Of a stretch of DNA of 64,000 bases, positions 7,280 through 49,006 are shown piece after piece. The notes beneath the pieces were generated by a model. That model worked only from the letters and a program-made list of their open reading frames with translations, made no database searches and had not been told where the DNA came from. Numbering within the stretch: position 1 is the first letter of the stretch; each line of letters starts with the position of its first letter. The translations under genes were made by a program, and so were the position numbers. This stretch comes from Alphaproteobacteria bacterium (GTDB lineage Bacteria > Pseudomonadota > Alphaproteobacteria > MPNO01 > UBA830), in the NCBI GenBank assembly GCA_964291215.2, contig OZ219790.1, forward strand, positions 1,696,001 through 1,760,000, written 5' to 3'.

Positions 7280-7687
7280 CCAAGTTAAGTCAACCCAAAT
7301 TGGCACTTTTTGTTGCGGCCTGGAATTTTTATCGCGTTGCGCGATTTTTTTGTCGGCCGATTTCAACATGGCACCACATTCTGTTGAATTCTGTCAGCTT
7401 GTGAGGCGGCTCCTCGTGCGGTGGGTTCGACACCAGCCGCCGAGGAGATTTCGGCAATCTCGGCGGCGCGTGTCCTGTCGGTTGACGATCAATGCGCGCA
7501 GGCGCGTGGTGACCCTGGTTCCGCATGCTCTCGCGGATTGATGTCCGGCACTTGTCGATGCCCCACGCGGGGATCAGATACACCGCGGCGAGCACGGCGA
7601 TCAACAGGTGGGCGGCGATGCGCTGGCCGGGCGCAATCCGGGCTCGGATTTCAATGAACGGAAGGTGGCCTCGATATCCATGTCCCG
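7280..7687 (-). mobile_element. IS1634-like transposase remnant, 3' part (5' continuation at 10197-10330)
   Basis: DIEATFRSLKSExGLRP and RIAAHLLIAVLA; joining across the IS110 insertion restores LRTS..RETVLGT. Confidence 0.7.
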
Positions 7688-8026
7688 AGCATCCATGTTT
7701 CTTGGCAAGGTTTTTGCGGGTGTCTGCGGTGATGTTTTCTGTGGTTGTCCACAAGCGGTGTGGGATTTGCTCTGCGAGCGAGGCGACATGAAGCTTGTGG
7801 TCCCGGCGGCGGGTTGCCGTCCATTGGTCACGTGAACGCGGCTACCTTGCCGCCCCCGGGCACGTGACCGTCCGGGTTCCAGGTGTCCCAAGGCGGTTCG
7901 ATCTCCTCGATGTCGGCCTCGACGATGATCTGCAGACATTCTCCCCAAGTCGTGTCGGAGACTGTCGAGACAGTCCCGATCGCGCTCTCGGCAGGGCCGT
8001 GTCTCCTTCGCTCACTCACCGGTGCT

Positions 8027-8725
8027 TCAGGCAACGCTGCTGTCGCAGCAAGGTGTTCGCCAGAGCTTGCGCATCACGGCGACAATAGCGACTTTGTGGG
8101 CCTTGTGGCGCACCAGATCCGCGTTGAAGCGTGCTGCCGAGGTCGCGGCCATGAACAGGAGATCACGTGGCCTCCGGCGCCCGCCTCGGATATGCCGAGC
8201 ACCGTGGCCATCGGCGCCACCCCGATCAAGGCTGCCGACGCTGCCGAGTTCGGGCATCCAGCAAAGAAGGGCTGCGGCGGTCACTGGATCGAGGTCAGGG
8301 TACCTCTGCTCGGGATCACCGGCGATCACCGCTTTGATCGCCGCGCCGGCAATCATCGAGATCGGCCGCCGAAGCCCTTGTGACGGTCTCGCCATCCACC
8401 TCATCTGCCACTTGCCTGGCGTCGACAAGCGCGGCACCAGGAGATCCCCCAGGCAGTTGAGGAAGGCTTCCTGAGGAGCCACAGGCTCGAGATCGCACCG
8501 TGCCGATCTTGGCGTCAACGCGGTTGGCCCAAAGCCTCGGCGAAGCCCTCAACGGGCAGGACAACCTCGAAGCCCCGGTCATGAAGACACTCCTTGCGGT
8601 GATAGCGGCCTGTCGCCCACCACACGGGTTACCTCGAGGCTGCGAAGCCACGTGCCCGTGGCGTCGTTCGTAAAACGACGCCCCAGATGTCCAGACTGGC
8701 TGACCCCTGCTACTACCTTGACCAT
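8027..8725 (-). pseudogene. IS110 recombinase pseudogene
   Basis: MVKVVAGV.S N-terminus; MPELG..HIRGGR..LFMAA..KVAIVAVMRKL C-terminal domain; many small deletions. Confidence 0.85.
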
Positions 8726-8729
8726 CGTT

Positions 8730-8900
8730 CCTCGCCTTATGATGATACGGTTCAAACCCAAGCATCCATTCAGGACGCAAGGGACGCCAAAGGAGGTTGC
8801 CACGCTCGGGAACGGCTCTATAAAGCCAAGGACGGAACGGCAACCTCCGCGGAGATCGTTTGATCCCCGCTCCCCTGTACGTTCTCACACAGGGGAGCGG
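8730..8900 (-). ncRNA. Putative IS110 bridge RNA, copy 1 (boundaries approximate)
   Basis: 5' hairpin; GGAGGTTGCC..GGCAACCTCC-closed target loop with guides CCGUCCU and UCCCGAG matching the flanks; donor loop AUGGAUGCU and AUAAG matching the end junction. Confidence 0.8.
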
Positions 8901-9000
8901 AATCTCTCTGCAACCATAGCTCTCCCATAGTCGAGGTTATCCACATTTTCCCGCCCCCAACTGCTGTGGATGATTTCATCATCAAGGGGACAAAACCTAG

Positions 9001-10184
9001 CCCCACTTCCAGTCTGAAGTGCAACACCCGGCCCTCATCGCAGTGAGGGCGTAGCCCGAACGGAGATGAGGGCCGGGTGTTGCGCAAATTTTTCCCCTCT
9101 GCCCCTCTCGATTCCGCCTAGGAACAGCTTCAGTTCCTTCAACATCAAGCTTATGCAACGCCTTTGTCGGCTTCAAGCCACTATTTCCCCGTCGCGCGGC
9201 ATGGACCCTGCTGCACGTTGCGGCTTTGGAACGCAGATGGTCAGGGCGGTTTCACTTCAAGATTACCTCCGTCGGCGATCCCAGGACTTTCCGAGTGTTG
9301 AGCCGATCCTTCTGAACATCTTCGTTGCATGTCGCGCGAAAGTCCGTGCCCTTCGGGAAGTACTCCCGCACCAGGCCGTTGGTGTGCTCATTCAAGCCGC
9401 GCTCCCAGGAATGGAAAGGCGAAGAAGAAATCTGCATCAAGTGCGACACGCCTGTGGTCTGCGAACTCCTTGCCGTTGTGATTGTGTGGACCAATAGCGC
9501 ACCAGAGCCGAGCAGGCGGATCATACCGACCGTGTCTTTCTGTCCACCCAGCAAGGTGTATTTCGTGGCACGAGCAACCAGCGACAGCTCCACTGTGAGC
9601 TTTGCCGATGATGGCTCCCAGTCGCCGATCCGTTCCTTTGCCTCCGCAGGGCGCTCGGAAATGTCCACTCGGCCAGGACCCGGCCAGAATGGCATCCGCC
9701 CTTCCAGTTCGGCTTCTTGCCGCGCCGCCGAAGCTTCAAGACACCCCCGGCTCTCCGATCTTCGGCGATCATGGATACGTTCACGGCCCTCCAGTCGAAA
9801 ACGGCCGCTGCTCGGGGCCCTCCCGCAGCTTTTTCTGAGCTTCAACCCGAGGCGTCAACCGCCAGGAAACAGACGAGGCGGCCCTGCGTTTCTGCCATCC
9901 TTTGCGCCTGCTTGTGACGGTAACCCCGTCCCCCGGTGTTGCGCTTGATCTCCCGGAAAATTGTTGATCGGCCCAGCTGCCGAGCAATCGCACCTTGTGA
10001 AAGACCGCTTTTCTGCCTCAATCTGGCATCGCTCTTCGTAGGTGACGGTAGCCTTTGGACATGAACAAGCTCCCTCCATCTTGTACAGGAACTCTCGCCG
10101 CTGCTGGACAGCTCCGCAACATCATGCGTCTAAAAACACATGGCCACAGCCCATCATGTGTTGCACTTCACTATGGAACGGGGG
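9001..10184 (-). mobile_element. IS30-family element, decayed
   Basis: TYEERCQI, ERIGDWE, SWERGLNEHTNGLVREYFPKGTDF; terminal IRs; 3-bp TSD (TAG at 8998-9000 and 10185-10187). Confidence 0.88.
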
Positions 10185-10354
10185 TAGTCATATAAGGACG
10201 GTCTCCCGGTCGCTGGTGCGCAGGCGTCCGCGGTGTCATCCGCCTTGTCGTCTGTGGCTGAAGCGCACGGCAGTTGCGTTGGCGCCGGCCTTCTCGACAG
10301 TGGTCTCGTAGTGCCGGCGACGGCGGAGCAGAGGAGTCTCACGCTAAATTCTGT

Positions 10355-10447
10355 GTAACTGCTCACCCTCTGATTCCGGCTTGATGTCGGGGTAGAGCAA
10401 CCAACGGATTTTCGTGGAGACATGACACTGTAGATCGATTCGGCTAG
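10355..10447 (+). mobile_element. Left-end fragment of the MTase-carrying IS66 element
   Basis: GTAACTGCTCACCC..CCGGCTTGATGTCGGGGTAGAG matches the ends at 51587 and 61482. Confidence 0.7.
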
Positions 10448-10448
10448 T

Positions 10449-11077
10449 CCGAAGTTCCAGAAAATTTCGGCTGATTTCCACCTCAAGTTATTGATTTGGC
10501 GTGGTTTATCGGATTTTCCATACATCAAAATGTACCCATATAATTGTGGGCCGATTTTTGACAGAGAAAAACATATCAGCTATATATAGTGGCCATGTAT
10601 AGTGGCCATGTATATCGAATCCGTCCCCAACCGCTCCTCACCGCCCGCCATCACCGCACCGAACCTCGGGCCCATGTCTTCCTGTGCATGCTCGCCTGCT
10701 ACGTCGAATGGCATGCGCCAGAAACTGAAGCCCATGTTGTTCGACGACGAGGATGCCGAAGGCGCCAGCGCAGGTCTCGGCAAGCGCCCGGGCCGGCAGC
10801 AAGAGGAGCGTTGACGGTGATCCGGTGCACAGCTTCCGTACCCTGATCGACGATCTCGCCACCCTCACCCGCAACACCGTGGCGCCCCGCCTTGCGGGCG
10901 CCGAAACCCTTCCAGCTCACCACGCGGCCCACGCCGGTCCAGAAAAAGGCCCTCGATCTCCTAGGCGTGAAGCCTTGGTGTACCTTGGGCGTGAAGCCTT
11001 GGTGTACCCAGACCGCTGAAATTTATTGAATGTGATTTCTATCAGGCACTTACGTCTGATCGGCTCTGGAACTTCGG
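10449..11077 (+). mobile_element. Internally deleted IS1634-family element (~630 bp)
   Basis: Perfect 13-bp IR CCGAAGTTCCAGA; start MYIESVPNRSSPPAI joined to C-terminal RAHVFLCMLACYVEWH and VHSFRTLIDDLATLTRN. Confidence 0.8.
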
Positions 11078-11079
11078 GC

Positions 11080-13152
11080 GTAAGCATTCGTTCGTGCGGT
11101 GATGACGATCTGCGCTGAGGATTATTTGGGCGGTTGCAAGAAGGGTGCTGGTAATCGGAATTCGGCTGTGCTATCAGGTCGTGCATGGTCATGTGCATCA
11201 AGGATTTCGTGTCATCATCGGGTGCGGACGCCGCTGGCGACGTGCCGCAGTCGTCGTGTAGTGATTCGGCCACCTGGAAGTCCCTGTACGATCGCGAGCG
11301 CATTCGAGCCGAGGTTGCGGAGGGTCGCTGTGAGGAGCTGCGCCTGCGGGAGGTGGAGGGGCCGCGCGAATTCCCTGAAGGCGATTTTCGAGAGCAATCG
11401 TGAGAAGCTGGTAGCTGCCCGTGCGGAGGTCAGGGAAGTTCGGCGGACGGCGAAGCAGCCTCTTGCGCTGAAGCAGGAGGTTGCGCGTCCGGGCCAGCTT
11501 CTTGCCGAGACCGGCGCGCGGAAGCGGTCGACGGTGGTGTCGCTGCGCATGGAGAATGCCGGCCTGAAGACCGCGATGAGGGTTCTGAAGGGTCGGGGCG
11601 GAGAACGACAAGCTTCGTTCGAACAGGTCGTACGGGCGCAAGAGCGAGAAGAGGCAGCGGGCGTCATCGAAGCGCGGCCAGCAGCGCGGCACTCCTGGCC
11701 GCGGCCGGCGTTCGAGGAGGTGGAGGAGCGGCTGGAGGTGGCGGAGGACGCCTGCTCGTGCTGCGTTGCCAACGGTTCGCACCAGGATCATCGAGATCAA
11801 AAGCGGCGGATTGTCCGCCGGGGCTGTGACTGCCCCGGTTCACCGAGCGAGGTGGCGGCCGGCACCGCATTCGGGTGTGGACGCATGTGCTGCACGAGCG
11901 CGTGCATACGGCCCTTGCGCCGCGTCCAGGGGCTTTCGCCGGAAACGCTGGCCAGCGAGCCGGATGCTGCCCCTGTTCGAGCCGCTTCGGGACGCGATCC
12001 TCGCGCACCGGGGTCTGCGCCATGCCGATGCATCCGGGCCCCGAGGGAGGTCCGAAAGTCGCGCCTGGCTCCGGACATCGGTCAGCCGTGACGCGGTCCT
12101 CTCCCTCGCGCAGCGCCGAGGTCGCGGCGAAGCTGTTCGCGGACGCCCCCATGTATCCGGTCTGCGGCCACCGGCGGCCGGTCGGCGTTCGAGGCTGCGC
12201 AGGCGGCGCCGGAGACTGCGGTCTCCGCGCTGTTTGCGGAAGCGCCGAGGCTTCCTAAAGCGGCGCCGGAAGGCAGGCCGCTGCGCTCAACCATCGCGTG
12301 TTCGTCGACCATGGACAACAATTTCGGGAAAAGGGCTGTCAGGGGCCCGGGCGGAAGCCCGGCTTCGGTTCCGACAGCATGGACGGCTGTCATGTACACG
12401 GTACGGTCGCGAGGAGCGGCCTCGACGTTCTGCGCTGGCGCCTGCGCGGAGAACGTCGGCCCGGCGATCTGTCGCCCTGGTTGCCGTGAGCCCGGAGAGG
12501 CGGCGGAGATTCGCAGCGCCGCCGTGAGGTCGAGGGCGCGACTTCATGGTCGCGGAGATGCGGCTGTTGCGACGATCACGGAGCGAACCCCATCGCCCGC
12601 GCCTTCTGCCGCCGCCGGGGGCCCCCCCGAAGCTGATCACACCGCCGCCCCGAAGACCCTCGACGAGCTCCGCCCGCTGACACTGCCTCGGATACACGCG
12701 CTTGGCGGCGCCGCAGATGCGCTACGCGATCCATGCGGCGAGCCGCTGCTTCTCGACCGCCGCATGGAGCGCGCGCTGCAACACCACGCCCGTGCCCTGC
12801 GAGACCCTGGTCGAGGTCCCGCGCCGCGGCGTCTGCCGGCCGCGTCGGAACAACCAGCGGCCGCTACGACCGACATGACAGAAGCCGAAGAAGGACATCT
12901 GGCCCGCTCCGCAAGGACTGGAAGCGGACCCTCAATCGCTGACCCCTGCAACCGGCACGGGATGGCGCTCAGCTCCTCCTCCGCAGCGCCGGGACAAAAC
13001 CGCGACCAATGCGGAAAACACGGCATCGCGCCAGTGCCCCTCACCGCGCATCCCGGTGCACGAAACCGCTCCGGGTGACGCTCGAACTCCCTGACAAAAG
13101 CCCGTCAAACGGACGAAAACAACAACACCTCACCGCACGAACGAACGCTTAC
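11080..13152 (+). mobile_element. IS66-family element, decayed, with downstream DUF4338-like passenger
   Basis: IRs GTAAGCATTCGTTCGTGCG / CGCACGAACGAACGCTTAC; coiled-coil and zinc-finger remnants, DNNF.ERA.RGP. Confidence 0.78.
12524..12942 (+). pseudogene. DUF4338 (DruA-like) protein pseudogene
   Basis: Fragments GRDFMVAEMRLLR, APKTLDELRPL, NTTPVPCETLVEVPR, VGTTSGRYDRH, KPKKDIW..LRKDWKRTLNR. Confidence 0.65.
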
Positions 13153-13233
13153 CCAACCCGCCCTCCGCAAAACCCGGGTACTGCCTTGAAAAATCAGACA
13201 TAATTTAGCGCAAGATCGCCTTGGTTGTGACCG

Positions 13234-14984
13234 CACGGCGATCCCACGCTAGGTTTGTTGGAAGGGTCGGTTTCGCTTGTTCAGGATGATTCGCATTTTC
13301 GCTGGCTTTTTGTGAAGCGGCGTAGTATCCGTTGTCGTGGGGGCAGCGGATTTTTTTGAGACGACTCCGGAGGGTTTTGAGCTCCGGGATGTGGTTGTGC
13401 GCCTTGCGCGGCCTGATGTCGCTGGAACCGTGTTGTTGACCGTATCTTGGTTTCAAGCAGTTTGCCGGTCGAGGTCTGCGTGTTCACTTGGCGCGGGCGG
13501 TGGATTGGCACTGCAGGCTGGCAGACGGGCGCCCTCAGCTGCGCACCCGTTGGCTGGCGCCGCGAGGAACAGTTCAGGCGGTTGCCGGGAACAACACAAG
13601 GTTTGTTGTTCTTGGTGGTCGTTTCCGGGCCTCGTTTGCGTTGTCGCGGATGGTGCGGCGGCGACTGGGAGGCTGCCGTTGCTTGTTGCGGAGTCGTTTG
13701 TCTTGCCGACGAAGTTCAGCGGCACCATGTACAAGGCGGCGAACTGGGAGTGCGTTGGCAGGAGCTATGCGCGCGCCAGCGGGCGCTATACCGACCGGGG
13801 AGGCGAAGGATCTTTACGTGTTTCCGCTGCGTCGCGATGTCGGCTGCGGGATCGTTCGCCGCTTCCTGTGGCGTGGGAGTCTGCGGGCGCCGCTGGTCGG
13901 CGCAGGAGTTGCGCTCGATTTATCAGCGGCGCTTTCCGGCGCGCGCAGGGGCATCGCCTCGGTGCTGTGCGTGATTTTGCTGGCTTGCGAACCGGCACGG
14001 TGCGGTTGCGGCGGCGCACTACGACGCAGAAGGAGCTGGAGCAGCATGGAAGAACAGGGACAAGCCGGTCTCCACCGTGCACCGGGTGCTGCAGAACACC
14101 GACCCGGGATGGATCGAGGATGCGGCGCGCAGCCGCAGGTCGGCAACGCGGTCGACGGCAAGCGCACCGGCGAGGATCATTACGAGACAGTCTCGCTGGC
14201 CGGTATTCGATCCTCAACTATCACGACGGGGAGATCGCTGCCGTCCACGCCGCGACGGCGCTGGCCGTCTGCTCACCCTCGACGCGCTCCACACCACCCG
14301 CGAGGCTGATCATCGAGACCCATCGCGCGGACTGATGGTCAAGGGCAACGCACCTTCGAGAGAGCATCAACTGGAAGACCGCCAGCGCTACAACGAAAAG
14401 CCCGCGCATGGCCGCCAGCGCACCATCTTCACCCCGCTGGCGAAGATGATCAACTAGCAGATCTTCCGCGTCACCCGGCGCGTCGAATTCAAGAAATCCG
14501 GAAAACGGACAACCGAATACGCCATGACCTCGGCCGAACGCGCCTCGCCGCAACAGCTGCTCGCATGGAATCATGGACACTGGGTAGTCGAGAGCCATCA
14601 TCATGTCCGCGATGCCACCTTCCGCGAAGACGACTCCATGCTCCGAACGCGCCCGCAAACAACGCGATCACCCTTGCAATCATCATCCGCAACAAGCTGC
14701 CCAAACCCTTCAACAGCTTCGTCGACACCACTATGCCAACAAGCGCAAGCAGGTCCTGCACGCAATCACAAGACCAGGCTGACCGCGCCTCTCTCCCCGG
14801 CAGAAACTGCAAGCTTTCGAGCCCGGCAACCAAGGCCTCTCGCTCGCCCCGGATACGCCGACCAATCGCGCCCCGCCCCGTAACAGCGCGTCAGCAAATC
14901 TCAAAATCGCAGCCTCGAACGCGTCGACCCGCGCCACGATCAGGACTCCGATCATATCACATCAACAAGCATGGGATCACCTTG
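13234..14984 (+). mobile_element. ISAs1-family element with N-terminal DUF4338 fusion, copy A (decayed)
   Basis: IRs CACGGCGATCCCACGC / GCATGGGATCACCTTG; 9-bp TSD TTGTGACCG; ESFV..TKFSGTMYKAANWECVG followed by VDGK, TLDALHT, VKGN, HWVVESHHHVRDATFRED. Confidence 0.85.
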
Positions 14985-15093
14985 TTGTGACCGCCGGGGT
15001 GCTTGCCCCGGCCGCGGTTATGGGATAGGATTGCCGCACTGAAGCATGTTCATCTGCCACATGACAGATCGACCACAAAGGGGAAGAAGCGCG

Positions 15094-17433
15094 ATGACAC
15101 AGAATATTTCCCGGACCGGCGGCGCTGACGACGACACCCTGACGGGGGGCGTCGGCAATGACATCCTGAAAGGCGGCCTCGGCGACGACACGCTGACGGG
15201 CGGCGCTGGCGACGACACGCTGACGGGCGGAACCGCAAGCCCGGGTGCCGACGCGGACTTTCTCCTCATGAACCCCGGCAGTTCGGACGATGACACGCTG
15301 GACGGCGGTGCTGGCGACGACACGCTGGACGGCGGTGCTGGCGACGACACGCTGGACGGCGGCACGGACAACGACACGCTCTATGGCGGCGACGGGGACG
15401 ACACGGTGGATGGCGGTGCGGGCAACGACCGTCTGGAAGGCGGCCGGGGCGCCGACAGGCTGACCGGCGGCCGGGGCGCGGACTCGCTCTATGGCGGCAG
15501 TGGCCATGACGTCTTTGCGTTCGCGGTCGGCGACGGGGCCGATTACATCGGCGATTTCGAGGCTGGCGACATCATCGAGATTGCCGGGGTGTCCGGCGGT
15601 TTCGGGGATCTGGTGATCGAGCAGAAGGGCTTCCATACCGTCATCCGCTACGGCGACGGCGACACGATCAAGCTGGAGGGCGTGTCGGCGGCCTCCCTTG
15701 GCGCGGACGACTTCCGGTTCCTTCCCGTCGAGGCAGCCCCGCCGGAGGGCGGCGGCGAGGACGCTCTTGCACAGGGCGCGCCGCCGGAGGGCACGTCCGG
15801 CGACGCCTCGAGCGGCGGGCCTTCTGGCGGCGAGGTGCTGAAGGGTAGCAAGGACGCGGACACGCTCACCGGCGGGGCCGGCGACGACACCCTGCGTGGC
15901 TACGGGGGCGCCGACACGCTGACCGGCGGGGCTGGCGACGACCTCCTCTATGGCGGCCTGGGCGCCGACACGCTGACCGGCGGGGCTGGCGACGATACGC
16001 TGGGGGGCGGCAAGGGCAACGACACGCTGGACGGCGGCGCGGGCGACGACACGCTGCGCGGCGCCAGGGGTGCCGACACCCTGCGCGGCGGCGCGGGCGA
16101 TGACACGCTGGGGGGCGGCAAGGGCGCCGACACCTTCGTGTTCGTGGCGGGAGACGGCCACGACACGATCACCGACTTCGGAGCCGGCGACCGGATTCGC
16201 CTCGACGGCGAGTCCGGCGGATTCGCGGCGCTGGTCATCGAGCAGGACGGCGCCGATACCGTCATTCGCTACGGCGGCGGCGACACGATCACCCTGTCGG
16301 GCGTGTCGGCGGACAGCCTGGATGCGAACGACTTCATCCTGCCTGCTGGCGGTGGCGGCGACGATCACGAAAAGGCCGCTTACGGCGCCAGTACGAGCGA
16401 CGACGACAACGACGGCGGCAATCCCCTCGATAACGACAACGACGGTGGCAACCCGAATGCCGGCAACGATGGCGGCGACCCGAATGCCGGCAACGATGGC
16501 GGCAACCCGAATGCCGGCAACGATGGCGGCGAGGACACGGACACGATCCCGGGCACTTCGGGCGATGATCCGCCAGACATTGAGGCCTGCGGCGTGACCA
16601 TTCGTGGCAGCGCGGACCGCGATTGGCTCTTTGGCACCGCGTGCGACGACACGATCTACGGCAACTCGGGTGACGACAAGCTCTACGGTCGAAAAGGCGA
16701 TGACATAATCTATGGCGGCGGGGGTAACGACCTCCTCCGCGGCAATTCGGGCGACGATGAGCTCTGGGGTGGGGACGGGCACGACTTTCTGACCGGTCGT
16801 AACGGCGACGACACGCTGGAAGGCGGCAAGGGCAACGATTTTCTCTCGGGTGGTTTGGGGGTTGACACGCTCCGGGGCGGGGAGGGCGCCGACCGATTCG
16901 GTTTCTTCGAGAAGGGCTACTACAGCCAGTGGGGATTCAAGGATGGCAGCGACGACACGATCCTCGACTTCGAGGATGGAACGGACCGCCTCGACTTCCA
17001 CTCGGTCGACGGGGAACTCGGCTTCGATGACCTCGAGATCTGGCAGTCCGACAGCGGCGCTGCCATCAACTGGTCCCTGGGGACCATCACCCTGGAGGGG
17101 ATCCAGACGTCGCAACTGACCGAAGCCGATTTTCACTTCGTCGGCCTGCCCGACTGGGCACTCGACGACAGCAAGGGCGACGACACGCTCCGAGGCCGCC
17201 CGGGCTACGACTCGTTCGGATTCGCGAATGGTGGCGACGACACGATCGTCGGCTACGAGGACGGAATAGACCGCATCGACTTCTACACGGAAGACTCGGA
17301 GCTCGACTTCGACGACCTCGTGATCCGGCAGTCCGACAGCGGCGCGGTCATCACCTGGTCCCTGGGGACTGTTACCGTGGTGGGGATTCAGGCGTCGCAA
17401 CTGACCGAGGCCGATTTCGACTTCGTCGGCTGA
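15094..17433 (+). CDS. RTX / hemolysin-type calcium-binding repeat protein (probable T1SS substrate)
   Basis: Dozens of GGxGDDTLx nonapeptides and four DTIxDF..DF modules; no signal peptide; frame intact. Confidence 0.88.
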   Translation: MTQNISRTGGADDDTLTGGVGNDILKGGLGDDTLTGGAGDDTLTGGTASPGADADFLLMNPGSSDDDTLDGGAGDDTLDGGAGDDTLDGGTDNDTLYGGDGDDTVDGGAGNDRLEGGRGADRLTGGRGADSLYGGSGHDVFAFAVGDGADYIGDFEAGDIIEIAGVSGGFGDLVIEQKGFHTVIRYGDGDTIKLEGVSAASLGADDFRFLPVEAAPPEGGGEDALAQGAPPEGTSGDASSGGPSGGEVLKGSKDADTLTGGAGDDTLRGYGGADTLTGGAGDDLLYGGLGADTLTGGAGDDTLGGGKGNDTLDGGAGDDTLRGARGADTLRGGAGDDTLGGGKGADTFVFVAGDGHDTITDFGAGDRIRLDGESGGFAALVIEQDGADTVIRYGGGDTITLSGVSADSLDANDFILPAGGGGDDHEKAAYGASTSDDDNDGGNPLDNDNDGGNPNAGNDGGDPNAGNDGGNPNAGNDGGEDTDTIPGTSGDDPPDIEACGVTIRGSADRDWLFGTACDDTIYGNSGDDKLYGRKGDDIIYGGGGNDLLRGNSGDDELWGGDGHDFLTGRNGDDTLEGGKGNDFLSGGLGVDTLRGGEGADRFGFFEKGYYSQWGFKDGSDDTILDFEDGTDRLDFHSVDGELGFDDLEIWQSDSGAAINWSLGTITLEGIQTSQLTEADFHFVGLPDWALDDSKGDDTLRGRPGYDSFGFANGGDDTIVGYEDGIDRIDFYTEDSELDFDDLVIRQSDSGAVITWSLGTVTVVGIQASQLTEADFDFVG
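16447..16527 (+). repeat. 3 x 27-bp tandem repeat inside the RTX gene (G[ND]PNAGNDG)
   Basis: GGCAACCCGAATGCCGGCAACGATGGC repeated three times, with one substitution. Confidence 0.9.
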
Positions 17434-17729
17434 CACACCTGTCGCGCGGCGCCAGAGCTATGCGAGAAGCGCCGCGCTGAGCGCCAGCCAGAGGGGCAGG
17501 AGCGTTGCGGGCCCGACATGCGGGCGCCCGGCGGCAGCTGACTGTGGCACGGATGCAACAGGTCCGGGCAATCGGCGTTCGGGTGGCCTGCCCGTTCCCT
17601 CCCGGCACATGCGGCCCGGGCGCGCCTGCGGCCTCATGCGCTTTCCCCGGCCTGTTTTCTGCCGCGGCGCCCGTTCGACAAGGCCTGTCCAACCCCGCGG
17701 ATCGGGCGGGTCTGGTTCAACGGGCCCCA

Positions 17730-36762: not shown

Positions 36763-36764
36763 TC

Positions 36765-38276: not shown

Positions 38277-38561
38277 TGAAGTGGCCACATCGAACTCCCG
38301 TACATGCAAATTGCACCTGTGCCGGACCGGGAAGGCTGAACCGGTTGGGCGGCGTCCGCCACAATGTCCTTCCGGCCCGGATGCTGCAAGGCTGGCGGCA
38401 GCGGAAAGCTGCCGCCACTATAGCAGCCGGAAGCGCGGCGGGCAGGGGGCGAAACCCGGAGCGGGCGGAAAAATGCGCGCCCGACGAACGGTTTCTTCAC
38501 CGCCTTTTCGGCAGTTTTGGACAGGCTTGTCCCGTCCGCGCTCGGAGACTCGTGCAGCCGG

Positions 38562-39806: not shown

Positions 39807-40124
39807 ATTCAGGTCTCCGTGCCGCGCGGGTTCCGCAAAGCCTCCGGTTGCACCGGTGACCGGCGGGCCGGCAAAGAATACTCTGCAAGGACGGTTTCTG
39901 CCAAGACGGGCCTCGATTCGTCTTGCGGTTCGTCGCACCGGCCCGGGACGCTTCGGTTCGCGGATTCAGGGGAACCCGGGCATGTTGCAAAGATGCGTCA
40001 GATGTGTTTAGTGTACGCTCATGTCAACCCGCCGATGTCGGCAGGCGCGGGCTGCGATGAAGCGGCTGTCAGGTCGGCTTGGTCGCGATCCTGACCATAG
40101 GGGAGCTTCAAGGAGAAAATGTCC

Positions 40125-40424
40125 ATGAGACACATCAAGTTCATCGCTGTTGCGGCAACCACAGTCCTGCTCGCTACGGGCTGCTCGGAACTGGAGCGGA
40201 TCGATCAGGCGGTTGCGACATCGAACGATGCGAAGGCTGCAGCGATGGCGGCCACCAAGGCTGCTGAGATGGCTACCAAGGCTGCTGAGATGGCCACCAA
40301 GGCGGCAAACGCTGCGGTCGGTAGCGCTGGAAAGGCAGCCAGCGACGCCAAGTCGGCTGCCGGCGAAGCCAAGATGGCTGCCGACAAGGCCGATCGGATC
40401 TTCCAGAAGAACCTGCGCAAGTAG
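40125..40424 (+). CDS. Lpp/OprI-like alanine-zipper outer-membrane lipoprotein
   Basis: Lipobox LATGC, Ala-rich heptads, C-terminus ADRIFQKNLRK ending in Lys; RBS AGGAGA. Confidence 0.85.
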   Translation: MRHIKFIAVAATTVLLATGCSELERIDQAVATSNDAKAAAMAATKAAEMATKAAEMATKAANAAVGSAGKAASDAKSAAGEAKMAADKADRIFQKNLRK

Positions 40425-40431
40425 GTCGTCT

Positions 40432-40464
40432 GCCGAGCGCGCCCCTGCGAGGGGGCGCTTCGGC
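40432..40464. terminator. Hairpin between convergent genes
   Basis: GCCGAGCGCGCCCCT-GCG-AGGGGGCGCTTCGGC imperfect stem. Confidence 0.55.
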
Positions 40465-40466
40465 TG

Positions 40467-41405
40467 CTAGCCCGACAGCACCGGTACCGGGATACCGCGG
40501 CGCCCGCGAGCCACCTGCTTGACCGTTTGCCAGTGGATGGCTTCGTGCCGGTTGCCTGCGGCTTCCGCAACTCTGTATTCAAGTTCTGCCGGCATTGATG
40601 GCGTGAAGCGGCCAGTCTGCTCGATTTCGTCGGCCTGCGACTGGCTCGGGTGAACCTCAAGGAACACTTGCCCGTTCCGGCGGGCAAGCTTCACCTCCTG
40701 ATCGACCACCGTTACCGGAGTGCCAACCGGGAGATTGTCGTAGAACCAGGCGATGTCTTCCGGGTAGAGGCGGACGCAGCCGTGGCTGACGCGGCGTCCG
40801 ATACCGAATGGCTTGTTCGTTCCGTGGATCAGGTAGGCTTGCCAGCCGAGATAGAGCGCGTGCTTACCAAGGGGGTTGTCCGGCCCAGGTCTGACGACGC
40901 GGGGAAGTTCGGGCTGCTCCATACGTATCGATTTGGGCACGTACCAGGACGGGTTGCGCGCCTTGCGGATGACCGTTGTCGACCCGGTGGGCGTGTTCCA
41001 TCCGTCGCTTCCGACCCCGAGCGGCGCCGAGCGGACGGAGGTGCCGTCGGGCTCAAAAAAATACAGACGCTGGTCCGCAAGGTTGACCACGATGCCCTTC
41101 CGTGCGGACTTCGGAACGATGTGGGCGGTCGGCAGGATGATCCGGGTGTTCGCGCCCGGTACCCAGGGGTCGATTCCCGGATTCGCGGCGACGATCTCCG
41201 TGTATCCGAGGCCGTGCGCACGCGCGAGGTCGGGAAACGTGTCCGTGTATTTGGCAAAGTAAATTTGCTGTTCGCCGACGATGTCCGGATATCCGTCACG
41301 GGGCTCGTCGACGCGCATCCCGGCGGCCATCGCTCCCGGAACGGCGATCATTGCGCCGATGGCGGTCATCGTTCCGGAAAACTGCCTGCGCCCGATCTCT
41401 GTCAT
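40467..41405 (-). CDS. L,D-transpeptidase (ErfK/YbiS family, LysM-like N-domain)
   Basis: PGPDNPLG, IHGTNKPFGIGRRVSHGCVRL; twin-arginine-like GRRQF leader. Confidence 0.92.
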   Translation of the reverse strand: MTEIGRRQFSGTMTAIGAMIAVPGAMAAGMRVDEPRDGYPDIVGEQQIYFAKYTDTFPDLARAHGLGYTEIVAANPGIDPWVPGANTRIILPTAHIVPKSARKGIVVNLADQRLYFFEPDGTSVRSAPLGVGSDGWNTPTGSTTVIRKARNPSWYVPKSIRMEQPELPRVVRPGPDNPLGKHALYLGWQAYLIHGTNKPFGIGRRVSHGCVRLYPEDIAWFYDNLPVGTPVTVVDQEVKLARRNGQVFLEVHPSQSQADEIEQTGRFTPSMPAELEYRVAEAAGNRHEAIHWQTVKQVARGRRGIPVPVLSG

Positions 41406-41735
41406 CCTGCATGCTCCCGATCCGCTGCGGGTGCGGCGTCGAGTCTGCGGCCCCCGGGCGTCAGCGCACCGTTGTCCGTGCGGTTCCGCTACGTTCAACT
41501 TCCAATATAGGGTGGGAAAGCCGTCGATCCAACCTGATTTCCAGTTTGTGTACAGTAAGTTCTGCAAAAGGGTGTTCAAGCCTGATTGGCCATCGAATTT
41601 CTGTCGCGCCCGGAGCCGCGACCTCGTTCCGCCACCGGCATCACGCCCGATCAGGTTGCGGTGCGACAGTGCGGCGGCGCGTGGACATGGCCACCGGTTT
41701 CGCTATAGTGGGCTGGCAATTGTCGGGGATGTTTC

Positions 41736-42347
41736 ATGAAAAGGGTTATCGTTGGTATCACCGGTGCGACCGGGACGATCTACGGTGTGCGCCTCATGGA
41801 GATGATGCAGGCCAATCCGGAAACGGAAATCCATCTGATCATGAGCAGGTCAGCCAAGCTGACACTCAAGATGGAGCATGATCTGGAGCTTGATTACATC
41901 AATGGTCTGGCCCACGAAGTACATGACCCCGGCAATATTGGAGCATCGATTTCGTCGGGCTCCTTCCAATCCAGCGGCATGGTCATCGCGCCCTGTTCGA
42001 TCAAGACGATGTCCAACATCACGATGGGCAATACGGGCGATCTGATCAGCCGCGCCGCGGATGTCGTTCTCAAGGAGCGGCGCACCCTCGTTGTCGTGAT
42101 TCGCGAGACGCCGCTTCATCTCGGCCATATCGAGAACCTTGCCCGGCTGGCGCGCATCGGCGCGGTCATCTTTCCGCCCGTTCCCGCGTTCTACAACCGT
42201 CCGGCTTCCCTTCAGGATGTTGTCGATCAGTCTTGCATGCGCATGCTTGACCAGTTGGACATCCACATCGAATCGGCGCCGCGCTGGGGCGAGGAGGGCG
42301 GGATTCCCGCTGTCGGGCAGCAGATCAGCGGTGGCCGGGGCGGCTGA
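41736..42347 (+). CDS. ubiX: Flavin prenyltransferase
   Basis: VGITGATG, ISSGS, RAADVVLKERR, RETPL. Confidence 0.95.
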   Translation: MKRVIVGITGATGTIYGVRLMEMMQANPETEIHLIMSRSAKLTLKMEHDLELDYINGLAHEVHDPGNIGASISSGSFQSSGMVIAPCSIKTMSNITMGNTGDLISRAADVVLKERRTLVVVIRETPLHLGHIENLARLARIGAVIFPPVPAFYNRPASLQDVVDQSCMRMLDQLDIHIESAPRWGEEGGIPAVGQQISGGRGG

Positions 42348-42355
42348 ACGCGAAG

Positions 42356-43138
42356 TCACTCGAACCTTGCGCTGACCTCGCCGAGCCCGTCAAGGGATAT
42401 CGTCGTCAGGCTGTCGCTGTCGTCAAGCCAGATCACCGGCGCCACCGAACCGGTCATGACGATCTCGCCGCTCTGCAGCGTGTGGCCGTGGCTGCGCAAC
42501 GTGTTGGCAAGCCATGCGACGACCTCGAACGGGTGCCCCATGGCTTCGGCCCCCAGTCCGGTGCCGCGCTGTTCGCCGTCGATGAGGGTGTTTCCCCGGA
42601 CCGCGGCGAGATCGATCATCTGCCAGCCCGCGGCCGGTTGACCGAGCACGCAGGCGCGGTGAAAGAAGTTGTCGGCGACCAGCGTCGGCGCTTCGAGCGC
42701 CGCGAAGTCGTCGTAGCGGTTCTCGACGATCTCGATGGCGGGCAGGACATCGCCAATGATCGAAAGAACGGAGGCGCGATCGTAGGGCACATCTTCCGCG
42801 TCGTGCCCGATCCTCACCGCGATCTCGCATTCTATACCCGGGCTGAGCAAGTCTGCGCGTGCAAACGCGGCTCCATCGGCGTGGGTGTCGTTGCGCAGTA
42901 TCCGGGCATAGGCCGGCCCGTCGACACCCAGATAGCGCTGCATGGAAGCCGTGGTCGCACCGACCTTCCAGCCCGATGGCGAATCCGGCACCCGTTCCAG
43001 CAGGAGGGCCTGGCGTGCAGCCTGGACGGCGTAGGCTTCCGCAAGATCCTGGGGCCGGTCGGCATCGGCCAGCCGGGTTACAGGCTGGCGAGCGAGCCAC
43101 GCGCCGACCAAGAACGCGGCGGTCCGTTCCGCATCCAT
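42356..43138 (-). CDS. 2-keto-4-pentenoate hydratase-like protein (FAH family)
   Basis: GWKVGAT, IECEIA, PAIEIV, VAWLAN..MTGS. Confidence 0.85.
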   Translation of the reverse strand: MDAERTAAFLVGAWLARQPVTRLADADRPQDLAEAYAVQAARQALLLERVPDSPSGWKVGATTASMQRYLGVDGPAYARILRNDTHADGAAFARADLLSPGIECEIAVRIGHDAEDVPYDRASVLSIIGDVLPAIEIVENRYDDFAALEAPTLVADNFFHRACVLGQPAAGWQMIDLAAVRGNTLIDGEQRGTGLGAEAMGHPFEVVAWLANTLRSHGHTLQSGEIVMTGSVAPVIWLDDSDSLTTISLDGLGEVSARFE

Positions 43139-43857
43139 CAGGTCACCGGCTTCTCGTCCTCAAAATTCCGCGCCTGCCGGCTCTCGTTGCGCGCCGTTTC
43201 GGCTCGGCAGCGCTCCCAGATATCCGGTCCGTAATATGCGGTGAAGTCGTCATGGATTCGCTGGAACGGCAGGTCGGACCAGATTCCATGGTTCGCGACA
43301 TACTGCATGTGCTTGCGTCCATGCTTGTCGAACTCTTGCAGAAGCGCGTCTTCGGCGCCGTCGAACTCGGTCGGTGTGACGTCGAACTTATCGCAGAGTT
43401 CGATATTGAATGCGGGTGCCGCCTTGACCCACTTGCCTTCGATGAGCATGACGGCATACCCGTGATGCAGGAACAGGTCCTTGCCGCCCATTGCGTCGCG
43501 AAGGCGTGGGCTGCACAGGTGGTTGGTCACGTCCGACAGTCCGATCGCGGTCGGGATGCCGGCATAGCGGGTAACGGCAGCAAGCAGGGACGCTTTCGGA
43601 ATGCAGTATGCAGCCCCGGTCTCGAGCACATCGCTGGCCTTGTAGGAGTCTGCGCGGTCGGTGATCCGGTAGGGATCGTAGCGGACGGCGTCGCGGACGG
43701 CATAAAATGCCCTGATCGCGGTTTCGCGGGCATCGGCGGCGCCGTCGACCACGCGTTCGGCGAATCCCCGGGTTGTCGGATGATCGAAGTCGAAGAACGG
43801 TGTCGGTTTCAGGTATTCGTCCGAAGGTTCCGGATATCCGGTTTCGTGAAATTCCAT
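43138..43857 (-). CDS. Transglutaminase-like protein
   Basis: FYAVRD..RYDPY, YCIPKA, HGY..WVKAAP. Confidence 0.85.
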   Translation of the reverse strand: MEFHETGYPEPSDEYLKPTPFFDFDHPTTRGFAERVVDGAADARETAIRAFYAVRDAVRYDPYRITDRADSYKASDVLETGAAYCIPKASLLAAVTRYAGIPTAIGLSDVTNHLCSPRLRDAMGGKDLFLHHGYAVMLIEGKWVKAAPAFNIELCDKFDVTPTEFDGAEDALLQEFDKHGRKHMQYVANHGIWSDLPFQRIHDDFTAYYGPDIWERCRAETARNESRQARNFEDEKPVT

Positions 43858-44116
43858 CTTGACGCCTCTGTGATCTGGGATGCCGGAACATATTGCATGG
43901 CGATGGAACCGGCAAGCCGGCAGGGACACGGTGATCCCATGCTAATTCGGAGACGCGAAATCCGAATGCGTTGGGGCTCGCGTCATCACAGATCGCCTCC
44001 TTGATCGCAATTTTTGTGCCGAGAAAGCTCTATCGAGCCTTGGCAGCACGATTGCAGCTCGACGCAAACTGTAAAAATCTCGCCAGTCGTCGCCGGATTA
44101 GCAGCGTGGGATCACC

Positions 44117-45103
44117 GTGGCTTCGGCGGACCGCACCTTGACGCCGCACCGTTTTGCTGATCGGATCGGCATTCTCCCCTGCCGTTTCCTGAGTGACGCC
44201 GCGTTGGCCGTTTCCGACAGTCCCGACAAACATCTGCCGCTCACGGGTATCCTCTGGATGGCGGCGGCGGCGCTCTGTTTTTCGGCCTCGCTGTCCCTGG
44301 TCAAGGCCCTTCAGGATTTCGGCCTGACCGTCTTCCAGGCCGTCCTCATACGCCAGGTACTGGGCCTGATCATCTTCCTGCCGGTGTTAGTGCAGAACTG
44401 GCCGGAGATCATTGGCTCCAGCGTGCTGTCAAGGCACTTCGTGCGTGCGGCGCTCGGATTCCTCGGCATGTGTTCAGCCTATTATTCCCTGTCGCTGATT
44501 CATCTCGCCGACTCGGTCGCGTTGCAGTTCACGCTCCCGTTCTTCGTGATGATCTTTGCGGTATGGATTCTTGGCGAACGCTTGCGGGCGCAGCGTATCA
44601 TCACCACAGCCATCGGGTTTGTCGGCGTCATGTTGATCATCCGGCCTGGTTTCGGCGACCTCAATTACGGCATTTTGTTCGCCCTGGCCGGGGCCGCTTT
44701 CTATGCGGCCTCTGACGTCAATGCACGCCGGCTGGCGCGTGACGACCCGCTGCCAGCAATCATGATCTGGAATTTTCTGTTCACCATTCCTCTGGCCGCG
44801 ATTCCGGGAATCGTCTGGTGGGTATCCCCGCCGGCGGACGCCTGGTGGTCGGTGCTCGCATTTGCGGTTGCCGGCGTCGGTGCCCAGTTCTGCCTGACGC
44901 GGTCTCTCGGCGTGGCGGAAGCGGGACTGGTGGCTCCGGTCCTTTTCCTCCGGCTGCCGATCATCGCTCTTGTCGGTTATCTGTGGTTCGGTCAGGACAC
45001 CGAAATCTGGACTTGGGCAGGGGCCGGCGTTATCTTCTTGGCGACGATATGGATGACACGGGCTGAGGCTGGGCGGTCGCCCCCGCAGTTGCGGAACCGG
45101 TGA
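44117..45103 (+). CDS. DMT/EamA family transporter
   Basis: About 10 TM segments, ILGER..GFVGVMLIIRPG; true start may be TTG at 44204. Confidence 0.88.
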   Translation: MASADRTLTPHRFADRIGILPCRFLSDAALAVSDSPDKHLPLTGILWMAAAALCFSASLSLVKALQDFGLTVFQAVLIRQVLGLIIFLPVLVQNWPEIIGSSVLSRHFVRAALGFLGMCSAYYSLSLIHLADSVALQFTLPFFVMIFAVWILGERLRAQRIITTAIGFVGVMLIIRPGFGDLNYGILFALAGAAFYAASDVNARRLARDDPLPAIMIWNFLFTIPLAAIPGIVWWVSPPADAWWSVLAFAVAGVGAQFCLTRSLGVAEAGLVAPVLFLRLPIIALVGYLWFGQDTEIWTWAGAGVIFLATIWMTRAEAGRSPPQLRNR

Positions 45104-45489
45104 TCGATGCCGTATCCTGCATCTTTGCTGCAGTCGCGATGATGGCCGACGGAACTGCTGCGCCGTCAAACGAGGATTCGGCGGAGCATCGGCTGCTCAA
45201 CGCCGCGAAACCATGATCGAGCAGTTTCGCGCGCGCGGCGGAGGCCGAGAAGCGGCGGCGCATCCACCGCGAGACGCACGAACAGCTGCGCAATGCCGAC
45301 CTCTACCGGGTGCAGATGCCGGTGCGCTACAGCGGTTACGAGATGCACCACCGAGGCATGCTCGACATCGCGGCCGAGATCGGGCGCGGCTGCGGATCCG
45401 CTGCGTGGATCTTCTCCAACATCGCCGCCCAGAACGGAATCGTTGCCATGGCCTCGAAGGAGGTCCAGGACGAGGTATGGGGCGATGAC
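45100..45489 (+). pseudogene. Acyl-CoA-dehydrogenase-fold flavin monooxygenase (HsaA-like), 5' fragment
   Basis: MPVRYSGYE..EIGRGCGSAAW..VQDEVWGDD, then abrupt switch to ISAs1 sequence. Confidence 0.78.
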
Positions 45490-46568
45490 TGTGATGAGAG
45501 CGACTGGTCGGCACAGGAGTTGCGCTCGATTTATCAGCACTTCAGGGCGCTTTCCGGCGCGCGCAGGGGCATCGCCTCGGTGCTGTGCGTGATGGCGCGG
45601 CTTGCGAACCGGCGCGGTGGCGCACTACGACGCAGAAGGAGCTGGAGCAGCGTGGAAGAACAGGGACAAGCCGGTCTCCACCGTGCACCGGGTGCTGCAG
45701 AACACCGACCCGGGATGGATCGAGGATGCGGCGCGCAGCCGCAGGTCGGCAACGACGGCAAGCGCGGCCGCACCGGCGAGGATCATTACGAGACGGTCTC
45801 GCTGGCACGGGGCCGGTATTCGATCCTCAACTGTCACGACGGGGAGATCGCTGCCGTCCACGCCGCGACGGCCGTCTGCTCACCCTCGACGCGCTCCACA
45901 CCACCCGCGAGGCTGATCGTCGAGACCCATCGCGCGGACTGATGGTCAAGGGCAACGCACCTTCGAGACAAGGTGATCCCATGCTTGTTGATGTGATGTG
46001 ATCTGAGTCCTGATCGCGGCGCGGGTCGACGCGTTCGAGGCTGCGATTTTGAGATTTGCTGACGTGCTGTTACGGCGCGGGGCGCGATTGGTCGGCGTAT
46101 CCGGGGCGAGCGAGAGGCCTTGGTTGCCGGGCTCGAAAGCTTGCAGTTTCTGTCGGGGAGAGAGGCGCGGTCAGCCTGGTCTTGTGATTGCGTGCAGGAC
46201 CTGCTTGCGCTTGTTGGCATAGTGGCGTCGACGAAGCTGTTGAAGGGTTTGGGCAGCTTGCGTTTGTTGCGGATGATGATTGCGAGGGTGATCGCGTTGT
46301 TTGCGGGCGCGTTCGGAGCATGGAGTCGTCTTCGCGGAAGGTGGCATCGCGGACATGATGGTGGCTCTCGACTACCCAGTGTCCGCGATTCCATGCGAGC
46401 AGCTGTTGCGGCGAGGCGCGCTCAACCGAGCATCCATGTTTCTTGGCAAGGTTTTTGCGGGTGTCTGTGGTGATGTTTTCTGTGGTTGTCCACAAGCGGT
46501 GTGGGATTTGCTCTGCGAGCGAGGCGGCATGAAGCTTGTGGTCCCGGCGGCGGGTTGCCGTCCATTGG

Positions 46569-46775
46569 TCACGTGAACGCGGCTACCTTGCCGTCCCCGG
46601 GCATGGTAACGTGACCGTCTGGGTTCCAGGTGTCCCAAGGCGGTTCGATCTCCTTGATGTCGACCTCGACGATGATCTGCAGACATTCTCCCCAAGTCGT
46701 GTCGTAGAGGGAGACTGTCGAGACAGTCCCGATCGCGCTCTCGGCAGGGGTGAGGGCCGTGTCTCCTTCGCTCAC
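46569..46775 (-). CDS. Small acidic ORF in the IS110 right end
   Basis: 68 aa; homologs at 52594-52794 (open) and 7828-8020 (frameshifted). Confidence 0.4.
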   Translation of the reverse strand: MSEGDTALTPAESAIGTVSTVSLYDTTWGECLQIIVEVDIKEIEPPWDTWNPDGHVTMPGDGKVAAFT

Positions 46776-47577
46776 TCACCGGTGCTTCAGGCAACGCTGC
46801 TGTCGCAGCAAGGTGTTCGCCAGAGCTTGCGCATCACGGCGACAATCGCGACCTTGTGGGCCTTGCCGGCAGTCTTGAGGCGCACCAGGTCCGCGTTGAA
46901 GCGTGCCGGTTGCGGCCATGAACAGGAGATCGCGTGGCCTTCGGCGCCCGCCACGGATGTGCCGAGCACCGTGGTCGTTGGCCATCGGCGCCACCCCGAT
47001 CAAGGCTGCCGCCTGCCGACGGTCGAGACTGCCGAGTTCGGGCATCCAGAAGGGCCGCGGCAGTCACCGGACCGGGGATCGAGGTCAGGATGGCGTACCT
47101 CTCGGCTTGCTCGGGATCACCGGCGATCACCGCTTTGATTGCCGCGCCGGCAATGCGATCATTGAGATCGGCCGCCGAGGCCCTTGTGACGGTCTCGCCA
47201 TCCACCTCATCTGCCACCTGCTTGGCGTCGACAAGCGCGGCATCAAGAGATCCTCCAGGCTCTTGAGGAAGGCATCCTGAGGAGCCACAGGCTCAAGATC
47301 GCCCAGCCGATCTTGGCTAGCGCGTCGACGCGGTCGGTCTTCGCCAGATGGCCCATCGCCTCGGCGAAGCCCGCAACGGGTTGACGAGAATAACCTCGAA
47401 GCCCCGGTCATGAAGACACTGGTGAACCTTGCGGTGATAGCGGCCTGTCGCCCACCACCCGGCTCACCCCGAGGCCGCGAAGCCACCTGCCCGTGGCGTC
47501 GTTCGCAAAACAATGCCCGCCGCACAGATGTCCAGACTGGCTGACCCCTGCTACTATCTTGACCATCGTCCCTTGCT

Positions 47578-47750
47578 CCTCGCCTTACGATGATACGGGT
47601 TCAAACCCAAGCATCCAGCGAGGGACGTCAAGGGAGGTTGGCCGACCACACTCGGTCGCGGCTCTGTCAAGGTCAAAACGGCAACCTCCGCGGAGATCGT
47701 TTGATCCCCGCACCCCGCTCCCCTGTGCGTGTTCGCTCAGGGGAGCGGAA
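47578..47750 (-). ncRNA. Putative IS110 bridge RNA, copy 2 (boundaries approximate)
   Basis: Same scaffold as copy 1; target guides UGACCU and CGACCGAG match the ISAs1 site TGAC-CT-CGGTCG. Confidence 0.78.
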
Positions 47751-49006
47751 TCTCTCTGCAACCATAGACCGGACGCTCTCCCACAGATCCACATTTTCCC
47801 GCCCCCAACTGCTGTGGATGATTGCATCATCAAGGGGACAAAACCTAGTCATATGGCGTATTCGGTTGTCCGTTTTCCGGATTTCTTGAATTCGACGCGC
47901 CGGGTGACGCGGAAGATCTGCTAGTTGATCATCTTCGCCAGCGGGGTGAAGATGGTGCGCTGGCGGCCATGCGCGGGCTTTTCGTTGTAGCGCTGGCGGT
48001 CTTCCAGTTGATGCTCTCTCGAAGGTGCGTTGCCCTTGACCATCAGTCCGCGCGATGGGTCTCGATGATCAGCCGCGCGGGTGGTGTGGAGCGCGTCGAG
48101 GGTGAGCAGACGGCCGGCAACCGGCGCCGTCGCGGCGTGGACGGCAGCGATCTCCCCGTCGTAATAGTTGAGGATCGAAACCGGCATACCGGTCCCGTGC
48201 CAGCGAGACCGTCTCGTAATGATCCTCGCCGGTGCGGCCGCGGATGCGCTTGCCGTCGACCGCGTTGCCGACTTCCGGGCGCGGCTGCGCGCCACATCCT
48301 CGATCCATCCCGGGTCGGTGTTCTGCAGCACCCGGTGCACGGTCGATTTGGAAACCGGCTTGTCCCTGTTCTTCCATGCTGCTCCAGCTCCTTCTGCGTC
48401 GTAGTGCGCCGCCGCGCCGGTTCGCAAGCCGCGCCATCACGCACAGCACCGAGGCGATGCGGTGCCCCTGCGCACGCCGGAAAGCGCCGCTGATAAATCG
48501 AGCGCAACTCCTGCGCCGACCAGCGGCGCCCGCAACTCCCACGCCACAGGAAGCGGCGAACGATCCCGTAGCCGACGTCACGACGCAGCGGAAACACGTA
48601 AAGATCCTTCGCCTCCCCGGTCGGTATAGCGCCCGCTGGCGCGCGCATAGCTCCTGCCAACGCACTCCCAGTTCGCTGCCTTGTACATGGTGCCGCTGAA
48701 CTTCGTCGGCGAGACAAACGACTCCGCAACAAGTAACGGATGGCGCAGCCTCCCAGTCGCCGCCGCACCATCCGCGACAACGCAAACGAGGCAAGGCCCG
48801 GAAACGACCACCAAGAACAACAAACCTCGTGTTGTTCCCGGCAACCGCCTGAACTGTTCCTCGCGGCGCCAGCCAATCCAACGGGTGCGCAGCTGAGGGC
48901 GCCCGTCTGCCAGCCCGCAGCGCCAATCCACCGCCCGCGCCAAGTGAACACGTAGCGCAGACCTCGACCGGCAAACTGCTTGAAACCAAGAGTATCTACT
49001 CACCCC

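Follow-up and report, generated by a model that had tools for sequence, protein, structure and literature searches.

How does a bridge RNA come by a new natural target, given that its guide is carried within the element and receives no renewal from the flank? The material considered here is a 64,000-nucleotide stretch of an alphaproteobacterial genome (contig OZ219790.1, positions 1,696,001 to 1,760,000 of the forward strand; hereafter the window), in which two copies of an IS110-family insertion sequence (IS) carry different target guides. A first-pass annotation of the window had proposed that each copy matches its own insertion site and that one IS110 lineage has switched targets within this genome. 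We favor the explanation, at a probability of roughly 0.7, that this family is a decayed IS110 of the IS621 type with constant donor guides and with target guides that match the sites of their own sub-lineages, these guides having been moved, likely, by selected base changes. The parts of this explanation that were read from sequence are the CT core, the four guides, the handshake bases, the junction motif, the guide–flank covariation, the empty mismatched hosts, and the rate of guide change.

Covariation of target guides and insertion sites

The copies in the window and their target-related parts were as follows (LTG and RTG, left and right target guides).

7688–10196, minus strand: clade A element (IS110 copy 1), from one core to the other, nested IS30-like element included
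10195–10201, minus strand: left target half of copy 1 with the CT core, identical to its LTG, in the host IS1634-like transposase remnant
7683–7689, minus strand: CT core and right target half of copy 1, complementary to its RTG
8792–8848, minus strand: target-binding loop of copy 1 (LTG 8829–8835, RTG 8805–8811, handshake bases 8803–8804)
46429–47854, minus strand: IS110 copy 2 (clade B) inside an ISAs1 remnant, its left junction lacking 8 bp including the core
47633–47689, minus strand: target-binding loop of copy 2 (LTG 47670–47675, RTG 47651–47658; a short deletion trims the inner hairpin)
51950–52935, plus strand: third copy, truncated and without a left end, its right flank being a class B ISAs1 site

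The guides that the first-pass annotation had placed on copy 1 (LTG, RTG, left donor guide [LDG] 8761–8769, and right donor guide [RDG] 8736–8740) proved correct on the minus strand, and both flanks of this copy matched at 7/7 positions per side, CT core included. The LTG and RTG of copy 2 were likewise correct as given; the right flank of this copy has one guide mismatch, at +5. As had been proposed, the left junction of copy 2 carries a small deletion, and the intact left half was found in empty ISAs1 sites of the genome and of a public run. This junction-spanning deletion of 8 bp is common to 10 copies in the same ISAs1 site.

Using the two element ends as BLAST queries, we obtained 66 left-end loci in the genome, of which one was spurious (leaving 65), plus eight right ends without a left end. 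Both ends lay within 1.8 kb in 59 copies; one right end was misassigned, so that 58 copies entered most analyses. Clade A comprised 18 copies (including copy 1) and clade B 37 (including copy 2), and older copies were ~90% identical to both. All copies examined are pseudogenes and are non-independent through gene conversion and repeated targets.

On either side of the core, guides and flanks were compared over the five bases beyond it. The comparison drew on target loops from 63 of the 65 loci; of the other two, one loop was read by eye later and one was interrupted. The left guide agreed with its flank at 196/245 bases over 49 copies, where shuffling gave a mean of 142.7 and a maximum of 169; for the right guide the figure was 265/295 over 59 copies, against a shuffled mean of 204.8 and maximum of 232. 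None of 20,000 row shuffles reached either total, also when only unique guide–flank pairs were counted (72/105 versus 54.9 shuffled on the left, 75/95 versus 56.3 on the right), confirming the covariation predicted in the first-pass annotation. At least four of the five bases matched in 35/49 left and 54/59 right flanks, with two left flanks that were probably misread (nested insertions) counted as misses. Since perfect matches outside the core amounted to only 19/49 on the left and 37/59 on the right, the wording that each copy matches its site was too strong. Within clade B alone the effect was small (p = 0.006 and 0.004). Among relatives in other genomes, where the loop was readable at 30 of 33 loci (two duplicates and one truncated locus having been excluded beforehand), taking one element per guide type gave 83/100 matched bases versus 36.7 shuffled (n = 10). 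Two copies at single-copy sites also matched (C1:2112908, 10/10; C1:1169087, 9/10), and pure carriage with the host is therefore excluded.

Most sites lay inside other multi-copy elements, which we grouped by site class.

Class A: IS1634-like element (indirect; the host of copy 1 was assigned by a tblastn match to an open reading frame [ORF] with an NF033559 match)
Class B: ISAs1
Class D: ISNCY
Classes E and A2: a second ISAs1-like element (weak for class E)
Classes C and F: unnamed multi-copy repeats, for both of which a family search gave no match

Occupied and empty hosts were then compared by the ratio of matching to mismatched alleles. In the IS1634-like host this ratio, for the right half, was 14:0 when occupied versus 4:9 when empty (p = 1.5e-4); the matching-to-mismatched ratios were 20:1 versus 7:14 in the ISAs1 host (p = 5e-5) and 3:0 versus 2:7 in the ISNCY host (p = 0.045). 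Perfect class A sites were nearly full, with 14 filled and one empty.

Predicted bridge RNA, recombinase, and decay of the family

The IS621-type bridge RNA layout that had been recognized in the window was supported on every feature testable from sequence. The left-end noncoding RNA folded better than shuffled sequences (z = −3.8 and −2.6), and its predicted fold combined two hairpins with a target and a donor loop. Compensatory changes were present in 7 of 56 predicted pairs (15 sequences), with a covariation score reached by 0/500 shuffles, and variable left-end columns were concentrated at the two target guides among 10 relatives. An Rfam search of positions 8500–9100 gave no match. In clade A, the target-loop stem (window 8792–8848) had 6- and 5-nt deletions, one on each side, and the shorter stem was still paired in 18/18 copies.

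8720–8900, minus strand: predicted bridge RNA of copy 1, with two 5′ hairpins, a loop that binds the target, and a loop that binds the donor (5′ end approximate)
8720–8788, minus strand: donor-binding loop of copy 1 (LDG 8761–8769, RDG 8736–8745 with one bulge, handshake bases 8734–8735)
47562–47632, minus strand: donor-binding loop of copy 2, which lacks 8 nt beside the left donor guide
10187–10192, minus strand: −10-like hexamer in the left end, predicted junction promoter
7703–7708, minus strand: −35-like hexamer in the right end; joining of the ends places it 17 nt from the −10 box
9001–10184, minus strand: decayed element of the IS30 family, nested and showing a 3-bp duplication, between the −10 box and the bridge RNA of copy 1
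8020–8725, minus strand: copy 1 pseudogene of the IS110 recombinase (3′ boundary approximate)
7880–7995, minus strand: remnant of a 96-aa accessory ORF between the recombinase and the right end of copy 1 (limits approximate)

The RDG had been located correctly in the first pass and is longer than the 5 nt given there: it pairs discontiguously with nine donor bases, with one bulged nucleotide. It tracked an A/G change of the donor in 27/27 relatives whose donor could be read, a single lineage accounting for the A state; in the genome studied here, 4/4 G donors had a matching RDG and eight A donors carried a G-type RDG. The handshake base of the target loop was C or U against donor G in 93/94 cases, and in the donor loop, G accompanied target C in 67 copies, while A accompanied target T in four (all T targets). 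The promoter-like pair TTGCCA–17–TATGAC is formed across the joined ends as stated in the first pass, and a fixed-spacing pattern found a TTG hexamer at 17-nt spacing, part of the predicted promoter, in 60/62 own right ends and 30/33 relatives.

The limits of copy 1 stood as first drawn, with 1,184 bp of the span belonging to the nested IS30-like element immediately behind the −10 box (NF033563 match, E 1e-15, below the cut-off). The span reaches 2.5 kb because of this element alone, and the form without the interruption was present in two runs. The CTAG directly behind the −10 box (window 10185–10187) was a hot spot for other IS, IS30-like and others, in ~10 copies; such insertions separate the promoter from the RNA.

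Fragments of the own copies matched PF01548 (N-terminal DEDD) and PF02371 (C-terminal Tnp) above cut-off. Intact 315-aa relatives in other Alphaproteobacteria carried both families, with NF033542 also above cut-off, and residues D9, E51, D93, D96, and S232, which aligned to the catalytic residues of IS621, were invariant in 31 intact relatives. The best solved relatives were IS621 (PDB 8wt6, E 3e-28) and ISCro4 (9t56, E 4e-25). CT was present at both ends, with empty single-CT sites for six target classes, and no terminal inverted repeats were seen at the element ends by inspection. The 96-aa accessory ORF is intact in a relative from another genome, L113 (L113:2478–2768), and a remnant lies at ~7880–7995 of the window. 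Its family, which is widespread and unnamed, had 903 representatives at E ≤ 0.001 and no Pfam or NCBIfam family match; the product is a candidate excision or directionality factor. Elsewhere in the window, a large ORF region with 27-nt repeats was located at 14977–17436; we take these repeats to be typical of calcium-binding RTX-type repeats.

The recombinase gene was broken in 58/58 near-complete copies, with at least seven frameshifting deletions relative to intact L113 (median 15). As an intact in-genome helper, no gene of this family qualified in a protein search that scored 150 of 245 candidates; two intact IS110 genes of ~427 aa (L016 and L017; G000 C1:883760 and C1:481582) belong to another subgroup, at 33% identity. 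Barring a helper beyond the assembly, the family has ceased to be active. Copies carried ~34–45 short deletions each relative to L113, some of which are lineage differences, with a size jump at 5 nt and a mode of 6; the threshold at 5 nt is reminiscent of the loop-size limit of MutS. Microhomology was considered as a cause of the deletions; its distribution relative to L113 was near random, with a small excess at 4–6 nt (the reference is 8% diverged). Identical deletions recurred in clades A and B without the neighboring single-nucleotide polymorphisms (SNPs) 4–8 nt away. Copies that share a deletion therefore need not descend from a common ancestor that had it, and shared frameshifts were dropped as an argument for spread in trans. 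An assembly artifact is unlikely, since a single study yielded the same indel variants in the contigs of three of its runs, one of which may come from the source sample. Other IS families in this genome, which is 99% complete, looked similarly eroded. The deletion pattern is possibly more unusual than the guide finding itself.

SNP patterns in clade B were mosaic, and the copy at C2:2862762 combined a clade A interior with an older-type site; at the level of these sequence patterns, both show conversion between copies. The copies at C2:3385617, C2:569531, C2:409873, and C2:1488749 (G000) had left and right flanks of differing site classes, which points to rearrangement among copies or to insertion guided on one side; in the last, the left side matched at 9/9 positions and the right was unmatched. 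In genome G044 (L123–L129 and L153), 8/8 copies share one 7-nt recombinase frameshift, yet they occupy several guide-matching sites, for which spread in trans, conversion, and a deletion hot spot are alternatives.

Origin and rate of the guide changes

By analogy with the established IS621 pathway, circle formation would join the element ends, the junction promoter would drive the RNA, and the recombinase would insert the circle at a guide-matching site. If each circle mostly used its own RNA, guide and flank would stay coupled despite the shared donor. The guide would then change first and the new site follow: a base change in the guide would cost nothing at the present site and would redirect the next insertion, and variants matching an abundant unfilled repeat would multiply. 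Such multiplication would account for the targets in other IS, the nearly full class A sites, and the rate excess described below. Mismatched copies may have arisen from conversion between copies, from tolerance at right position +4, or from guiding by the RNA of another copy. Selection for access to fresh landing sites is the likely reason for the fast drift of the guides. A stronger version, in which the target guides are under diversifying selection, the IS110 parasitizing multi-copy IS, filling their sites and walking on by one- or two-base changes at about five times the neutral rate, with the steps and the escaped host alleles preserved in this genome, is offered tentatively, at somewhat worse than even odds.

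Several observations weigh against the favored explanation. The copies at C1:1771145, C2:2909516, and C2:2862762 occupy sites predicted by the guide of another copy, and handshake A stands with target C in three copies. The host-allele test was null for classes C (p = 1) and E (p = 0.14), and occupied copies within one host family need not represent independent insertions. The empty sites comprised 19 perfect ones of class E, seven of class B, and 25 that differ from the clade A guide by one base; since class E and A2 sites stay empty, sites are not exhausted everywhere. Right position +4 in clade B did not track site class (6:3 versus 10:10, p = 0.45). Activity of the family here is not supported: a protein search in which 150 of 245 candidates were scored revealed no full-length recombinase of this IS110 family in the genome, and neither the assembly nor the contigs from four runs contained a circle junction, a blank that amounts to no evidence.

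The alternative that fares best, with nearly an even chance in our judgment, is that the main sub-lineages (A, B, and older) arrived separately with differing guides, making this genome a collection point and not the place of an A/B switch. L113, which has another guide, grouped with the older copies of this genome (support 96/87), and 0% of 200 bootstrap trees united the 20 own rows. Two other genomes carried two or three guide types on recombinases ~89–93% identical, and no close DNA match to the family was found in the 40 related genomes searched, many of them incomplete, from which it follows that the family moves sideways. Conversely, the approximately unbiased test did not reject one clade (p = 0.31), and L113, being the projection reference, may be pulled inward in the tree. 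In addition, a 6-nt deletion in the target-loop stem is carried by 58/58 own copies and not by L113, although deletions recur. Identity between copies 1 and 2 is 94.4% without gaps, with differences at 14% of four-fold sites; four-fold diversity inside clade B is 3.3%. The sub-lineages of these two copies are as far apart as the other-genome element, and their A/B switch in this genome is not shown by the sequences compared. The first-pass interpretation is partly supported, in that the bridge RNA layout is of the IS621 type and guides and flanks covary.

Separate arrival leaves the one-base switches inside clade B unexplained. Right guide CGCTC was present in 2/37 clade B copies, both in class E sites and one also with a matching left change, and left guide TTCAC occurred in one clade B copy, in a class E site. 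Of two clade B copies with the class D right guide, one was in a class D site. Left position −4 in clade B tracked class C (7:2 versus 6:17, p = 0.015). These patterns, which the first-pass annotation did not include, suggest that in-genome switching by one-base guide changes inside clade B is better supported than the A/B switch.

Guide positions change 4–5 times faster than synonymous sites. On the coding tree of 11 relatives, guide columns underwent 5.0 changes versus 1.08 per four-fold column (181 columns), and in 20 own copies the values were 2.4 and 0.49. Left-end comparators gave 4.3 changes for guide columns versus 0.77 for other columns, and 1.05 for the 5′ spacer. Seven intact guide types differed at 66% of guide positions and 17% of four-fold sites (21 non-independent pairs). 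These rates are to be read with their ten guide columns, G+C-biased comparators, and possible loop exchange between elements in mind. It is unlikely that this excess merely reflects neutral drift of the guide after insertion, with constraint on the comparison positions. For such drift speak the small number of columns (only 10) and the composition of four-fold sites, which at 83% G+C may therefore be constrained; moreover, IS621 excision needs no target match (10.64898/2026.08.31.748434), and there would therefore be no selection to keep matching the old site. Against it, four-fold sites and the 5′ spacer agree with each other at 4–5 times below the guides, and a comparison of L024 with L104 gives differences at 8.5% of four-fold sites and 7/10 guide positions.

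It is less probable still that the covariation goes back to a small number of founder insertions, multiplied together with their host IS or by gene conversion. The clustering of 13 clade A copies at one 16-mer site and of ~21 clade B copies at another, the shared 8-bp deletion of ten class B copies, the mosaic SNPs, and the copy at C2:2862762 all fit this reading, most copies being non-independent. The signal nevertheless survives collapse to unique pairs and to one relative per guide type, and the copies at single-copy sites match. Founder copying is thus probably a partial contributor; as the whole explanation it does not hold. Finally, a dedicated process that copies the new target into the guide after an off-target insertion is highly improbable: very fast change confined to ten guide positions and a series of zero, one, and two matching changes in three class E copies would fit it, but the changes in clade B are single-base, many copies are unmatched to their flanks, the class E series could equally be stepwise selection or partial conversion to the common type, and no candidate enzyme was identified.

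Relation to known bridge RNA systems

What goes beyond the first-pass annotation is that the targets are mostly multi-copy IS, that mismatched host copies are empty, and that the guides change 4–5 times faster than synonymous sites. The value of the family lies in a large natural dataset on guide evolution. It offers a testable case, in which a single scaffold with a shared donor bears more than 10 natural target loops, natural sites both match and mismatch the guides, and relatives retain intact recombinases. It also provides mismatch rules from nature (tolerance at right +4, strictness at +5 and in the core) and, for bridge editing, a small collection of intact orthologues from Alphaproteobacteria. 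Our literature search found no paper on in-genome guide change or guide rates; supplements lay outside the search, and Supplementary Data 2 of Durrant et al. may hold cases.

In the IS1111 group, the guide RNA (seekRNA) lies in the right end and inverted repeats are sub-terminal. Unlike in that group, the guide-bearing RNA of the present family lies upstream of the recombinase, and the right end holds the accessory ORF.

The mechanism itself, and natural guide–target concordance across orthologues, are already published, and the known mechanism is unchanged by our results. According to the IS621 reports, the joined ends build a promoter and the recombinase is led by the RNA to both donor and target, natural target motifs of different orthologues agree with their LTG and RTG apart from zero to two mismatches, and IS110 RDGs pair discontiguously (PMC11208160); a handshake base rule has been given for IS621 (PMC11208158). 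Half-match recombination, described for IS621 in vitro (10.64898/2026.08.31.748434), offers a route to one-side-matched copies such as C2:1488749 and to high copy number, and rearrangement between copies explains such cases here equally well. The family resembles ISCro4/IS622 in its 14-nt target and donor around a CT core and its handshake guides; that system is an active engineered one, and natural in-genome guide change is not the subject of the report as far as its available text extends (Perry et al., 10.1101/2025.05.14.653916).

The closest comparison is with IS621, as described by Durrant et al. 2024 and Hiraizumi et al. 2024. Both systems have a recombinase with DEDD residues and a catalytic serine, a left-end RNA with a 5′ hairpin, a variable target loop, a conserved donor loop, a CT core, a discontiguous RDG, handshake bases, and a junction promoter motif. 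The present family differs in being a distant protein relative with a natural RTG of ~7 nt, two 5′ hairpins, and a 96-aa accessory ORF. Its targets are mostly other IS families, whereas those of IS621 are REP (repetitive extragenic palindromic) repeats, and many guide types are gathered here within one genome, on copies that are all broken.

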